Below are positions 29,415 to 35,729 of a stretch of DNA of 64,000 bases, one piece after another. The translations under genes and the position numbers were made by a program. This DNA comes from a candidate division WS6 bacterium GW2011_GWF2_39_15 (GTDB lineage: Bacteria; Patescibacteriota; Dojkabacteria; SC72). Below the pieces are notes generated by a model. The model did no database searches. It saw nothing but the letters and a program-made list of their open reading frames with translations, and had not been told where the DNA came from. The stretch lies in assembly GCA_000993565.1 (NCBI GenBank), contig LBWK01000001.1, forward strand, positions 300,208 to 364,207, in the 5' to 3' direction. Numbering within the stretch: the stretch's first letter is position 1; each line of letters opens with the position of its first letter.

Positions 29415-29906
29415 ATGGAACCTGCCCGACAAAATATCTCTCAGTTAATAGTAAATGATGATGTTACACAGACAAAGTTCAATCAATTTGCAAAGGAACT
29501 TCAGGATTTAGGAGCATCAGAGAAAGAGATTAAAGAGATAGCCATGGGAGTTGCAAAGACTGCATCTAATCAGACGACAGCAAAAATCAGCCTTTTAATG
29601 GACGATAGCGACTGGAGTAAATGGAAAGCCTTTGTAGATTCAACTCCAACACCAAATGTTGCACAACAACTCATTATCATGAACAAATTCCTTGAAGATA
29701 GGACAGGCAAGAGCCTAGAGACATTGCATCTTGAAATTCTTGATTCATTACTTAAAGATACTCTTGATCAGATTCAAAAGAGAAGGGATATGGCTATTAA
29801 AGTATCCAAACTTTCTGACGAACAGATAGATACCGTTAATGAAGCTCTTGATAATGAGGAGTTTGATAAAGCTGATGATATATTAAATTCTACAAGTACT
29901 AATTAA
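29415..29906 (+). CDS. small acidic helical protein, function unknown
   Basis: 163 aa, 1 nt upstream of the giant ORF. Its C-terminal NEALDNEEFDKADDILNS resembles LEEAKMNEDYDTMEAIIKS of the ORF at 35286. Confidence 0.4.
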   Translation: MEPARQNISQLIVNDDVTQTKFNQFAKELQDLGASEKEIKEIAMGVAKTASNQTTAKISLLMDDSDWSKWKAFVDSTPTPNVAQQLIIMNKFLEDRTGKSLETLHLEILDSLLKDTLDQIQKRRDMAIKVSKLSDEQIDTVNEALDNEEFDKADDILNSTSTN

Positions 29907-29907
29907 A

Positions 29908-32900
29908 ATGGGACTTAACGCCGGTGGTATGCAAGAAATACATCCTGATATCCAGTCAGATAGAGAGTTAATAACCTCTGGTAAAGTTCCTCAGGGAACT
30001 GCTGAAGCTAATGACAAATTAAATACTCCAGTAGTAGATATTACAAAGACAACTGGTTATTATGGGAATGATTTAACAACCGATCCTCTCCCGCTTACTG
30101 CTGAAGCGACAGCAAAGATACTTAGAAGAGGTCCTGCACAAAATGAAGATAATGGAGAAACAGGCTTGAAAGCCGGCGAGGAAAGACCTAAAACTCAATC
30201 TGCTATTCCTGTAGCCAACGGATCAGCTTATGTCGAATCAGTTAGTCCTTCAACCCCTGCACAGCAGACACCAGACACCGAAGGACTTGATCAACTTAAT
30301 ACCCCCTTATATACGCTTACTGGAGGAGGAGAGACCACTTCGACTAATGTAACTACGCCAAATGCAACAGAAGGTAAAGCAGGTAAAAACGGTACTGATA
30401 CATCAGATGACTTAGTAGCAAAGCTAAGATCAATGTTGTCCCAGGCTGACAAAGATAAGCCTAAAGAACACACTATAGAAACACCTGTAGCCCAGGATCT
30501 CAATCAGGCAGTTACAGCTTTGGCTGCAGAAGTTGCTAAGGAACCTGAAAATAATTCAAAGAAGGAAGAGTTGAACGGCTTAAAGGAATTAAGTCAATCT
30601 GTAACGAACCTCTCACAACAGATAAACCAGGTGAAAATAGAAATCACAAATCAAGTTAATACTCAGGTTGCCCAAATTACTGCAAAGATGGAAGAATCTA
30701 AAGATAAGCTGGCAGGAACGGTAAACCACTATTATATGCAAGGGGGCTCAGTATTTCACGGGACAGTAGGAGCAGGTACACATATAGAAGTTACAAATAC
30801 GGCAAGTAATTTTAATACAGGAGCAGCAGGAATAAGCGTTAGAAATACAGCAGACCACGGAAGTACAATAAACAATGGCAATATTGTAGATGCAGGTGTT
30901 AATCTGGGTATACTAGATTTGAATGCAATGATGGAAGAAGCTGAAAATTTGGACAGGCTTGCAGACGAACCAGAAGCGCCAACTTCTCTAAGTGAGGCGG
31001 CAAGGGACACAGCCGATAAGGCGAGAGAGCTTACAGAGGATATAAAGACAAGAAAAACTGATCGAGTAACAGATCCGGCAGTTACACCTGATTCAAGTTC
31101 AACAACTCATCCACCCGTAATAAAACCTCAACCAAATGTAACACCGAACGATAATCCTCCTACACCTCCACAACCGGCAGTAGCAGTAACAGATGACAGT
31201 AGTGAGCATAAAGACACCGGAGTAACCCCAGAAGAGCAACCTACTTCCGATCCTAAGAAAGCAGCAGAGAATCTAGTAGGGCCATTGACTCCTGAAGAGT
31301 CACAGGAATTTGATAATGCGAATGAAAAGAAAGGTTTTCTCTTCAGCATAAAGAGAATGTTCAGCGGTGAAAACTGGAAGAGATGGGTACCAACAGTGAT
31401 AGGGTCGATCGCAGGTTCATTCGGGGTAAAACTGTTTGCAGGAGCAGCTCTATCAATGGGTCCAATTGGAACCGCATTACTCGGAGGTGCAATGGCTGGT
31501 TTTGCCATATATTCAGGATATAGAGCTATCAAGAACTTAAGTGAGGCAGCCAAGGCGGAAGGTAAATCTGTATGGCAGGTAATGGGCAACTTGGATTTTG
31601 TAAAAGGAGCCTTACTTGGAGGATTAATTTCTGGGGTAGGTAAAGCTTCAGCGAAGTTTATCCCTGGATTCGGTTCGCTTATGGCACTTGGACTTGAAGG
31701 AGGAACTTCGTGGCTATTTGAAAATCACCTTAACAAGAAACAGCAGGAATTAGTTAACAAATACATGGATACATACCAGGCACGCAGGTATGCAAATCTT
31801 AAGGATAAAGGATATGTCATTAGAGGTGCTGAAGGAGCACCTGCTGTAGGAATGGAATCCATACTTAAAGATATGACAAGTGCACCTTCAGAATCAGAAA
31901 AGAAGGTAGCAAAGAGAGCTGCACTTGCTTCCCTTATACATCTCTACAGCATAACTAAGGATGATGCCCATAAATTTGTTGAGTATACGATAAAGGAGAA
32001 CGGTGTCGATAAGGTGATTAAGGTTGATATTACACAAATTGCGATTGATGAAGCAGAAGGAAGTACAGAGAAATACAGAATGCTTCAACTTAAAGATACT
32101 GACAAGATTAATGTCGAGAAATTTATAGATACATTAGATACAGCCAAACTTACATCAGCGATTCAAGATGCATGGAACAAAACCGATGCAACTAAGAGGG
32201 CTGATATGGCTAAGGATCTTGTAAACCTCTTCGTTGGCTTGGAAGGCACAGAAGTAGAGAAGATTATGTCGGAAGAGAGAAAGAGCTATCTCTCATGGAT
32301 CAACTTCACAACTGGGTTACACTTTGGTATGGCGGCAGTAAATGTTGGATCCTCTCTTGCAGGAGCTTACGGAGCATTCAGAGACAATTTTGGTGTCAAT
32401 CATGATGCACAGGGAGTAAACACCTCAGATTCTCAACAAGCAACAGAAGATTATAGAAGTGCCCATCCAGAAGCCCCGCAGGCAGAAGTAGAGAGGGTAG
32501 TAAATGCTGAAGGCCACATAATTGATAAGGTAGATGTAGACGGAGGCGGCGTAGACTACTACGTCGACCAAACTACAAACCAATATGTTGTACTTTCTGG
32601 GACCGGTGCTGAAAGCGTATTTGAAATACAACACCCGGATCTTGGACAGGTAACCGCAACTGAAGTAACTACCCACGGAGATACAGGCATTGTTGCCACT
32701 TTGAGTGATAATGCAGGAAAAGTTGTTGGTGTAACATATGCCGACTCTACTGGACACATTGGAGTTTTGGATATGAACGGCGTAGGTCAGCATCTATTTG
32801 CAGGTGGAGGAGAGAGCCCAATACACGGAGTAACTCTCACTGATATACAGCCAAATGGTGATGCAACATTAGTTTTAGACAATGTAAACCATCAAGTAAA

Positions 32901-35259: not shown

Positions 35260-35285
35260 AAATTAAACTATAAAAGACTTGAGAT

Positions 35286-35729
35286 ATGGTAGAGGAAATT
35301 GCAAAACTAATAGATCAGTTAAAAACTTACGGCCTTGATAATGCAAAACTATCAGCTCTATACCAGTTGGCAGTAGAAGATTTTCTTGAGGAGGTTCAAA
35401 CAGACCTAACAGAAATCTCCGATAGTGACCTAACCGACATAGAGTCATCACTTAAAGACATAACCATTGATAGCTTAGCAGAAGGTAATAATGATCCTTT
35501 CATGACGACTTTACGAAAACTATATGGAGCTCAAGCAGAACCGAGATTCTTGAAATTCCTTAAGGAATACTTTGAAGATGCTGTTAAGCAAGCCCAATCA
35601 GCAAAAGAGCTACTAGAGAAATATAAAGCTAATGATCCTGAAGTTCTAAAGAAGTTAGAGGAAGCAAAAATGAACGAGGATTATGATACGATGGAGGCTA
35701 TTATCAAGAGCCTTAATCCTGGAGAATAG
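35286..35729 (+). CDS. small acidic helical protein, possible paralog of 29415..29906
   Basis: 147 aa, similar in composition and in the C-terminal motif. Confidence 0.4.
   Translation: MVEEIAKLIDQLKTYGLDNAKLSALYQLAVEDFLEEVQTDLTEISDSDLTDIESSLKDITIDSLAEGNNDPFMTTLRKLYGAQAEPRFLKFLKEYFEDAVKQAQSAKELLEKYKANDPEVLKKLEEAKMNEDYDTMEAIIKSLNPGE

Follow-up and report, generated by a model that had tools for sequence, protein, structure and literature searches.

Two small acidic helical proteins, probably paralogous, bracket a giant membrane protein gene in Dojkabacteria

Background

The flagellar chaperones FliS, FlgN, and FliT and the chaperones of type III secretion are small (about 120–165 aa), acidic, cytoplasmic proteins that share an operon with their client and often bind it at a defined terminal region. 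FliS, FlgN, and FliT are all-helical. In the WXG100/EsxA–EsxB pairs, and with Lap1 and Lap2 of the LXG toxins, two related small helical proteins are found in an operon with a large protein and presumably act together with it. Both kinds are helical hairpins of ~100 aa and belong to the type VII secretion of Firmicutes and Actinobacteria. In phage tail-fiber switching, the Mu G segment and the P1 C segment involve a constant part, Sc, the variable parts Sv and Sv', and the assembly factors U and U'.

To our knowledge, the giant proteins of the CPR are almost entirely uncharacterized, and a search of the literature on giant proteins of Dojkabacteria and the CPR and on the present genome found nothing relevant. 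Intragenic invertons touch on the locus from another side. Intragenic DNA inversions are reported to widen the coding capacity of bacteria (Chanin et al., PMC10028968), and inverted repeats within coding sequence could recode a protein by inversion.

The locus examined here is from a Dojkabacteria (candidate division WS6) genome and has a giant gene standing between two small genes, ORF A and ORF B. A preliminary description of the window, i.e., the whole 64,000-nucleotide stretch of DNA that was analyzed, had proposed that the two small products are diverged paralogs with a chaperone- or adaptor-like role.

The Locus and Its Operon

The features of the locus are collected in Table 1. The coordinates of the ORFs and the gaps between them (1 nt between ORF A and the giant gene, 26 nt between the giant gene and ORF B) are as first described. 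A and B are both conserved genes, and the intergenic gaps in the orthologous loci are 2–24 nt. The TTGACA-17-TACTAT site, which as a promoter call is a consensus match only (10 of 12 positions), is the best such match within positions 29000–38800 and is found 38 nt ahead of the point where ORF A starts. No terminator-like site was found on the plus strand. The gaps, the promoter-like site, and the gene order suggest that A, the giant gene, and B form one tight operon.

Table 1. Features of the A–giant–B locus, with positions counted from the first letter of the window
Feature	Position	Strand	Description
Putative promoter, A–giant–B operon	29348–29376	+	sigma-70-like TTGACA-17-TACTAT
ORF A	29415–29906	+	163 aa; A family member; gene call also present in other assemblies
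Giant gene	29908–35259	+	1783 aa; multi-pass membrane protein without known family
Inverted-repeat arm 1	30723–30886		within giant gene, codons ~272–326
Giant protein, conserved central region	31246–33327	+	aa 447–1140
Giant protein, conserved C-terminal membrane module	34699–35217	+	aa ~1598–1770
ORF B	35286–35729	+	147 aa; B family member
ORF C	35741–37288	-	515 aa; orphan
Inverted-repeat arm 2	37090–37253		within ORF C, codons ~12–66
Xer-type tyrosine recombinase gene	37334–38644	-	436 aa

Two Small Protein Families

The small size, acidity, and helical character attributed to the two products at the outset hold for each taken alone. Both are acidic (net charge −11 and pI 4.5 for A, −16 and 4.35 for B), and both are all-helical by structure prediction, with eight helices in A and eight in B. 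The AF2 model of A has low confidence (pLDDT 69.8), with the other four models at about 50. A hydropathy scan detected no TM segment in either product. The acidity is family-wide, with a pI of 4.1–4.7 in 24 of the 25 members of the A and B families and a net charge of −9 to −20.

Orthologs of A with 44–48% identity are found at three other loci (L015, L018, and L023). They can be aligned over their full length and have conserved N-termini, where the family shows the pattern M-D/E-x-A-x-Q-N-I/M-S-x-L-I. At L015 and L023 the A ortholog is directly upstream of an ortholog of the giant gene, and an ortholog of B comes after it. The B family is broader, with ~21 remote full-length homologs of 136–149 aa. 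Gly16 is invariant in the family; L12, Y80, and G81 are near-invariant; and K-Y-x-x-G-D-P and P-D motifs are found. ORF B scores 163.5 bits against the B-family HMM, a match that is by construction because ORF B is a seed within that HMM.

Searches of Pfam, NCBIfam, PADLOC, and PHROGs with A and B gave only sub-threshold, mutually inconsistent matches. Sub-threshold matches were also all that was found with Pfam and NCBIfam across 22 B-family members and with PDB sequences against the A- and B-family profiles. A word-indexed search for homologs of A, B, or the giant protein returned only self matches or a fragment. An assignment of B as PrsA-like (E 3e-4) was rejected, given that the match occurs in only one of the 22 B-family members. 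Fold comparison gave no significant match to a known fold either. The A and B families are two new small protein families without a name in current libraries.

Probable Paralogy of A and B

The proposed relation of A and B as diverged paralogs is now highly probable, as the profile–profile comparison gave significant similarity with clean controls. The call rests on profiles, with only three independent sequences in the A profile: hhalign aligned the A family with the B family at 95.0% probability (E 3.7e-8) over 138 collinear columns. The probability climbed as A orthologs were added, from 73.8% to 93.6% to 95.0%. The reversed control gave 0.7%, all of the controls for this comparison were at most 4%, and the real score of 52.6 stands against a highest score of 20.4 among 200 column shuffles. 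Small acidic helical ORFs beside the giant genes of three further loci (L008, L009, and L016) were considered as members of the same superfamily and rejected, with hhalign values below 1%.

Searches with HMMs give a matching picture. Across 534 ORFs, a B-only HMM places all four A-family sequences right behind the 15 B members, with 26.0, 25.0, 21.3, and 17.8 bits; the next match has 12.3. Under the B-family HMM, reversed A scores −0.2 to 1.9 bits, and 6000 shuffled versions of A (global or local) have a maximum of 13.7, none of them reaching the real score. Reciprocally, the top nine non-A matches of an A-family HMM are all B members.

A joint MAFFT alignment arrives independently at the same register. 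It shows an invariant Gly (G33 in A, G16 in B) and a near-invariant Leu, and the two families have an S/D-P-E motif and a D-Y/F-D/E motif in common. In the structure predictions, which had been put forward along with profile alignment as a check on the idea, the AF2 helices of A and B match one to one with an offset of 17.

These comparisons suggest that A and B belong to one undescribed superfamily, restricted to Dojkabacteria as far as seen, whose members are strongly acidic, all-helical proteins of 140–165 aa. The duplication that produced A and B probably took place before at least three lineages of Dojkabacteria diverged, and the two copies have since stayed together around the giant gene.

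The Giant Protein and a Possible Partner Role

The N-terminal ~450 aa of the giant protein are low-complexity, acidic, and unalignable to orthologs. The central region opens with a Gly/Ala-rich TM cluster and has 35–36% identity to the giants of L015, L023, and L002; no match to it was found among PDB sequences or in Pfam. The C-terminal module combines a hairpin of TM segments with a K/R/E-rich basic coil (pI 9.75) and a final TM segment. As a check on whether the giant carries paralogous TM modules, an N-proximal and a C-terminal one, each for one of the small proteins, the two were compared by hhalign, which gave 19%, with 1.9% for the reversed control.

Every comparable protein whose gene immediately precedes a B-family gene has the C-terminal module. 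The B-family gene comes after a protein with this module in the nine loci that have a comparable upstream protein, and the gene order is the same at another six loci, as judged from the order alone. At L017 the B-family gene follows a module-bearing protein of 524 aa, and the A gene is not upstream.

A and B may both work in the cytoplasm as binding partners dedicated to the giant protein, whether as chaperones for its stabilization or assembly or as cytoplasmic subunits in stoichiometric amounts. The predicted docking site of B is the basic cytoplasmic coil in the C-terminal module, and A would dock on a part that is present only in full-length giants. The charges count for such a partnership, in that both families are acidic and the cytoplasmic coil of the module is basic. 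No chaperone or adaptor match for A or B was found in the family libraries or by fold comparison. The partner or chaperone role is put forward tentatively, as a real possibility that stops short of being probable, while paralogy and the partner role taken jointly are considered somewhat favored.

It could also be that A and B function independently of the giant protein, say in regulation or in cytoskeletal or division processes, and are simply cotranscribed with the giant gene. This is fairly unlikely. The family and fold matches that would support it are all below significance, and the net charge of the families argues against DNA binding. In many loci, including those with shortened versions of the upstream protein, B also keeps strictly to its place beside the C-terminal membrane module, which points to a functional link with the giant protein.

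The Inverted Repeat and the History of the Locus

An inverted repeat of 164 nt has one arm in the giant gene and the other in ORF C. As originally described, A is outside and B inside the segment that the repeat bounds. Both arms are at the same codon phase when computed from their coordinates, so an exchange between them would be in frame. Residues 1–89 of ORF C are 62% identical to giant residues 261–349, the repeat-encoded segment. Should the segment invert, A would remain on the side of the constant N-terminus of the giant, and B would go with the displaced C-terminal part.

This geometry allows a reading in which the bracket is an adaptation to an invertible segment resembling the Mu G segment, with B as the partner of a variable C-terminal cassette and A as the partner of the constant N-terminus. 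The placement of A and the constant part outside and of the variable part and B inside, the in-frame exchange, and the adjoining tyrosine recombinase gene all fit. Even so, the reading is quite unlikely, as L015 and L023 have A–giant–B by the recombinase gene with neither the repeat nor ORF C, and the repeat-encoded segment is missing from the orthologous giants. The repeat is seen only in the present organism, as is ORF C, an insertion that separates B from the recombinase gene and lacks a small partner gene of its own. The two arms of the repeat are only 90% identical to each other. Three assemblies of the organism from different samples are identical and show one orientation, and the flipped orientation was not found in them. 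A search for phage relatives of A and B gave no PHROG match below E 0.02 and no viral fold match.

The recombinase also speaks against a dedicated switch. It is the conserved Xer-type gene of the Ruv/YebC cluster in all Dojkabacteria loci compared and is 52–77% identical across Dojkabacteria. The cluster itself is conserved as a 271-aa gene, RuvB, RuvA, RuvC, and YebC. In three genomes (the window, L015, and L023), A–giant–B is convergent with this gene. A place convergent with the Xer-type gene and directly downstream of a module-bearing gene is also a mark of the B family, and ORF B has it. Judged by these gene orders, the A–giant–B arrangement convergent with the Xer-type recombinase is ancestral, and the inverted repeat and ORF C are a later, organism-specific addition to the older operon. 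With the repeat and ORF C confined to this organism, the A–giant–B bracket was not built around inversion.

The preliminary description had pointed out that each predicted chimera would keep one small partner. The geometry behind this statement is correct, but L015 and L023, the conserved cluster around the recombinase gene, and the single orientation in the assemblies weaken the view that the arrangement is there for the chimeras. The sorting of A and B on inversion would be a consequence of the geometry, not the reason for the bracket. In the most far-reaching version, A and B would found an undescribed class of cytoplasmic handling factors, CPR-specific and working as a paralogous pair, each of which recognizes one end of the giant multi-pass envelope protein, and Xer-type-mediated intragenic inversion would swap the protein body so that each chimera keeps one factor. 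This version is extremely improbable; if true, it would be a cellular analogue of phage tail-fiber switching with a housekeeping recombinase.

Direct Comparison and the Case for Nonhomology

A different kind of objection is that A and B are nonhomologous and that their likeness reflects the composition and helix periodicity of acidic amphipathic helical proteins. The direct comparison of the two sequences is compatible with this. BLASTP gave no alignment between A and B at E ≤ 100. The best Smith–Waterman score is 66 (ungapped, 62 aa), which is reached by 4 of 1000 shuffles, and A against reversed B scores 62. The reversed sequence almost equals the forward score; the pairwise signal is therefore largely composition, and pairwise similarity was rejected as proof of homology. 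The C-terminal motif noticed by eye in the preliminary description is present, as 22 residues (A138–159 against B121–142) with seven identities and a BLOSUM62 score of 35, but this score by itself is not beyond chance, given that an equal 22-mer pair occurs in 7.7% of shuffles. The identity in the A–B profile alignment is also only 16%. On sequence grounds, the direct pairwise similarity is not convincing.

Nonhomology is nevertheless very unlikely and is in large part refuted by the profiles. Their scores collapse for reversed and shuffled sequences and for other real small acidic helical ORFs of Dojkabacteria. The four A members come out at the top of the non-B sequences under the B-only HMM, and the reverse search agrees. 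The profile alignment is nearly full length and collinear, has an invariant Gly in common, and fits the predicted helix boundaries. The motif seen by eye falls in the register of this alignment.

The suggestion that B is an immunity or antidote protein against a toxic C-terminal domain of the giant, with ORF C as an alternative C-terminal cassette, is still harder to credit and was rejected for B as a polymorphic-toxin immunity protein, as the ~170-aa C-terminal TM module upstream of B is conserved in all loci and no toxin or immunity family match was found in Pfam and the other family libraries.

Significance and Comparison with Known Systems

The results show that one giant protein of the CPR is passed on in a unit of three genes, together with two small acidic helical proteins that are probably ancient duplicates of each other. 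A–giant–B offers a defined, testable module, where the question is which protein binds which and at which end. The recent overlay of the repeat and ORF C on an older operon limits how far the locus can be read as a switching system by design. In practice the gain is modest and consists of better annotation and a hypothesis for interaction work, with no new mechanism.

The Mu and P1 switching systems resemble the locus in having a constant N-terminal part outside a repeat-bounded segment and alternative C-terminal parts inside it in opposite orientations. A small gene within the segment, downstream of one variable part, is a further likeness. In contrast to Mu and P1, only one of the two variable parts here is followed by a small gene, the small proteins predate the repeat, and no inversion has been observed. 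In place of a serine invertase, the locus has a Xer-type tyrosine recombinase, which belongs to a housekeeping cluster. A and B as tail-fiber assembly proteins (Mu U/Tfa) were rejected on the PHROG and viral fold results given above and on the housekeeping neighborhood. With the intragenic invertons, the likeness is in the locus around A and B, with its intragenic repeats, and not in the small proteins; inversion at the present locus is putative.

A and B are like the flagellar and type III chaperones in their small size, their acidity, and their place in an operon with a large protein. They were rejected as type III class I chaperones (CesT/SycE-like, alpha/beta), being all-helical with no strands and having no Pfam match. 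They were also rejected as flagellar export chaperones (FliS, FlgN, FliT), where neither the family models nor the four-helix-bundle fold agreed.

The WXG100 and Lap pairs, for which Pfam likewise gave no match to A or B, share with the present locus two related small helical proteins in the operon of a large protein. In contrast to those pairs, A and B are eight-helix proteins of 147–163 aa that flank the large gene on each side, and they are found in a CPR phylum.

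Conserved gene families on either side of the giant gene

ORF A and ORF B, the small proteins coded on either side of the giant gene in the candidate division WS6 (Dojkabacteria) bacterium GW2011_GWF2_39_15, are very probably ancient paralogs. Both are acidic (net charge -11 and pI 4.5 for A, -16 and 4.35 for B) with an all-helical predicted secondary structure. They are closely spaced with the giant gene, A lying 1 nt upstream and B 26 nt downstream, and the top promoter-like site of the 29000-38800 region falls just 5' of ORF A. The giant protein and ORF B correspond to UT34_C0001G0333 and UT34_C0001G0334 of this genome, each 100% identical. 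Several ORFs antisense to the giant gene are probably artefacts of its skewed composition. A GT2 glycosyltransferase gene and a 259-aa ORF without a Pfam match, which overlaps its start by 8 nt, are both divergent from the A–giant–B operon.

Features of the locus and its surroundings (window coordinates)
Feature	Position	Strand	Size or note
259-aa ORF	27702-28481	-	259 aa
GT2 glycosyltransferase gene	28474-29253		
Promoter-like site	29348-29376		
ORF A	29415-29906	+	163 aa
Giant gene	29908-35259	+	1783 aa
Antisense ORFs	30291-34940	-	64-153 aa; e.g., 31128-31589, 33084-33542
Inverted repeat, arm in giant gene	30723-30886		164 nt, 90%
Basic stretch of giant protein	33327-34700		aa ~1140-1600
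ORF B	35286-35729	+	147 aa
ORF C	35741-37288	-	515 aa
Inverted repeat, arm in ORF C	37090-37253		164 nt, 90%
Recombinase-led housekeeping block	37334-42915	-	
Tyrosine recombinase	37334-38644	-	436 aa
271-aa gene	39083-39898	-	271 aa
RuvB	39902-40960	-	
RuvA	40957-41556	-	
RuvC	41574-42062	-	
YebC	42091-42915	-	

When 1.84 billion representative proteins were scanned in full with HMMER, B gave 21 remote homologs (23-42% identity); 18 have lengths of 136-149 aa, and in 19 the match covers most of the protein. In the B-family alignment (A1), Gly16 is invariant and L12, Y80, and G81 are nearly so. The homologs occur in a uniform context, preceded by a large gene on their own strand and followed by a convergent tyrosine recombinase that is 57-68% identical to that of the window (identities measured for the first set of these loci). 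Using the recombinase as the query on GTDB genomes gave ten Dojkabacteria loci. One of them, L015 from HGW-Dojkabacteria-1, begins with an A-like protein of 160 aa (44% identity to A; tblastn E 1e-33), followed by a 1739-aa giant ortholog, a 148-aa B ortholog, and the convergent recombinase. A third genome (GCA_054814005.1, locus L023) has the same four genes, with an A-like protein of 158 aa that is 48% identical to A, and a metagenome contig carries a near-copy of the L015 A-like protein. The N-termini of A and B are conserved, which confirms both start codons; both ORFs are conserved genes.

A collection of 5.8 billion proteins lacks full-length ORF A and yielded only a fragment of 102 aa, on a contig of 650 nt; in ENA and Logan contigs of GW2011_GWF2_39_15 it is called as a 163-aa gene. 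Most metagenome contigs with B-family genes (L001-L007, L022, L024-L026) are only 1.1-5.7 kb and often break in the giant gene or recombinase, which suggests that strain variation or low-complexity sequence disturbs assembly in their vicinity.

Probable paralogy of A and B

On pairwise evidence alone the case for paralogy would fail. BLASTP gives no alignment between A and B at E<=100. The best Smith–Waterman match is an ungapped 62-residue block (A97-159 / B80-142) with a score of 66, which is reached by 4 of 1000 residue shuffles. Reversed B scores 62 against A, so most of this score reflects composition and amphipathic pattern. The 22-residue C-terminal motif originally picked out by eye scores 35 by itself, with 7 identities, and is matched by 7.7% of shuffles.

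Profile comparison, the test proposed in the preliminary description, supports its suggestion that A and B are diverged paralogs. An HMM built from 22 B-family sequences only was searched against all 534 ORFs (>=60 aa) from the fetched loci and the window. The 15 B-family members ranked first and the four A-family sequences directly after them, at 26.0, 25.0, 21.3, and 17.8 bits (E 2e-7 to 7e-5), with the following match at 12.3 bits. In the reciprocal search with an A-family HMM, the nine best non-A matches were all B-family members. Reversed A sequences scored -0.2 to 1.9 bits against the B-family HMM, and none of 3000 global or 3000 local 10-residue shuffles of A reached the real scores (maximum 13.7). 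The 12.3-bit match, which is not significant, is a 196-aa ORF at the RuvA position of another fetched locus (L011, 2177-2764).

With hhalign, the probability for the B family rose from 73.8% against A alone to 93.6% against A plus one ortholog and 95.0% against three A-family members (E 3.7e-8; 138 collinear columns, A20-160 / B3-143). In a local run the real score was 52.6, compared with 15.4 (0.7%) for the reversed alignment and maxima of 17.5 in 100 column shuffles and 20.4 in 100 local shuffles. As natural controls, small acidic helical ORFs were taken from other Dojkabacteria in which different giant genes occupy this chromosomal site (loci L008, L009, and L016); they gave hhalign probabilities below 1%.

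A joint MAFFT alignment of the two families has the same register as hhalign. Gly is invariant at A G33 = B G16 and Leu nearly so at A L29 = B L12, and A and B have an S/D-P-E turn and a D-Y/F-D/E motif in common. The motif pair noticed by eye (A138-159 / B121-142) falls exactly in this register, at an offset of 17. Single-sequence AlphaFold models place helices at 4-13, 16-31, 36-61, 64-75, 82-97, 101-131, 135-146, and 150-162 in A (pLDDT 69.8) and at 2-14, 19-40, 46-57, 61-65, 71-80, 84-116, 118-129, and 133-143 in B (pLDDT 81.5). These pair one to one at the same offset, with an extra N-terminal helix in A only that is kept across the A family. The N-terminal L-x-x-x-G-L-x-x-x-K-I motif, conserved in both, might be helix-hairpin-helix-like. 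Three genomes contain both families, and their recombinases share only ~55% identity in the pair that was compared (window versus L015), indicating that the duplication predates those lineages.

Recombinase, inverted repeat, and variable neighbors

The recombinase is Xer-type; its score with the XerC and XerD models of NCBIfam is 177 bits, under their cut-offs. In all ten fetched, syntenic Dojkabacteria loci it is clustered with the 271-aa gene, RuvB, RuvA, RuvC, and YebC. Because it heads a conserved housekeeping block, it is probably not a dedicated invertase. Its adjacency to A–giant–B is ancestral.

As first described, A lies outside and B inside the segment bounded by the inverted repeat. 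The arms have equal codon phase, computed from their coordinates, and differ at 16 positions; stretches of exact identity are only 20-23 nt. Three assemblies of GW2011_GWF2_39_15 from different samples are 100% identical and show one orientation. ORF C is absent from L015 and L023, where the B gene runs straight to the recombinase, and no significant inverted repeat occurs in L015, the one locus screened for them; the repeat and ORF C are restricted to GW2011_GWF2_39_15. The paralog bracket is therefore older than the repeat, which does not explain it. The idea that each chimera predicted from inversion would keep one partner is true geometrically, as a by-product.

The site downstream of the Xer gene resembles a hotspot of variable giant-gene cassettes. 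In other Dojkabacteria it holds different, unrelated giant genes of 1755, 1171, and at least 1518 aa (L008, 11498-21212; L009, 11370-17708; L016, 9618-17738), beside small acidic helical ORFs of 159, 152, 146, and 160 aa with no relation to A or B. The gene upstream of A is a different one in L015 and L023, where it codes for 647 aa; the L023 copy has glycosyltransferase domains. L023 also has seven consecutive ORFs of 165-187 aa without Pfam matches (14721-19096), interspersed between RuvA, RuvC, and YebC and absent from the equivalent block of the window, which could be a tandem paralog array.

The giant protein and a possible role for A and B

The giant proteins share a conserved central region (aa ~447-1140, 35-36% identity) and a C-terminal module (aa ~1598-1770) composed of a transmembrane hairpin, a basic coil (pI 9.75), and a final transmembrane segment. 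Their N-terminal 450-620 residues are of low complexity and cannot be aligned, and orthologous giants lack the repeat-encoded segment (aa 261-349). The stretch at aa ~1140-1600 is basic (pI 8.7 for aa 1178-1624) and by eye has several loosely repeated units like ING-x-KY-x-Y...W-x-K; BLASTP does not align it between orthologs, and self-BLAST finds no internal repeat.

Every comparable protein coded directly upstream of a B-family gene carries the C-terminal module, including a 524-aa protein in locus L017 without an A-like gene upstream; a 374-aa gene upstream of a B-family gene at another locus falls outside this comparison. The A and B families are acidic throughout, with a pI of 4.1-4.7 in 24 of 25 members, and a hydropathy scan detected no transmembrane segments in A or B.

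The most likely role, put forward tentatively, is that A and B serve the giant membrane protein as dedicated partners in the cytoplasm, whether chaperone-like or as stoichiometric subunits. This proposal draws on the tight operon coupling, the conserved gene order, the lack of detected transmembrane segments, the strict tie between B and the C-terminal module, and the charge complementarity of the basic coil and acidic B. The C-terminal module would be the target of B, and that of A would be a part present only in full-length giants. A putative chaperone or adaptor role, as initially envisaged, is plausible. The A and B families are new and unnamed, and they are of a familiar kind, that of small accessory proteins coencoded with a large protein.
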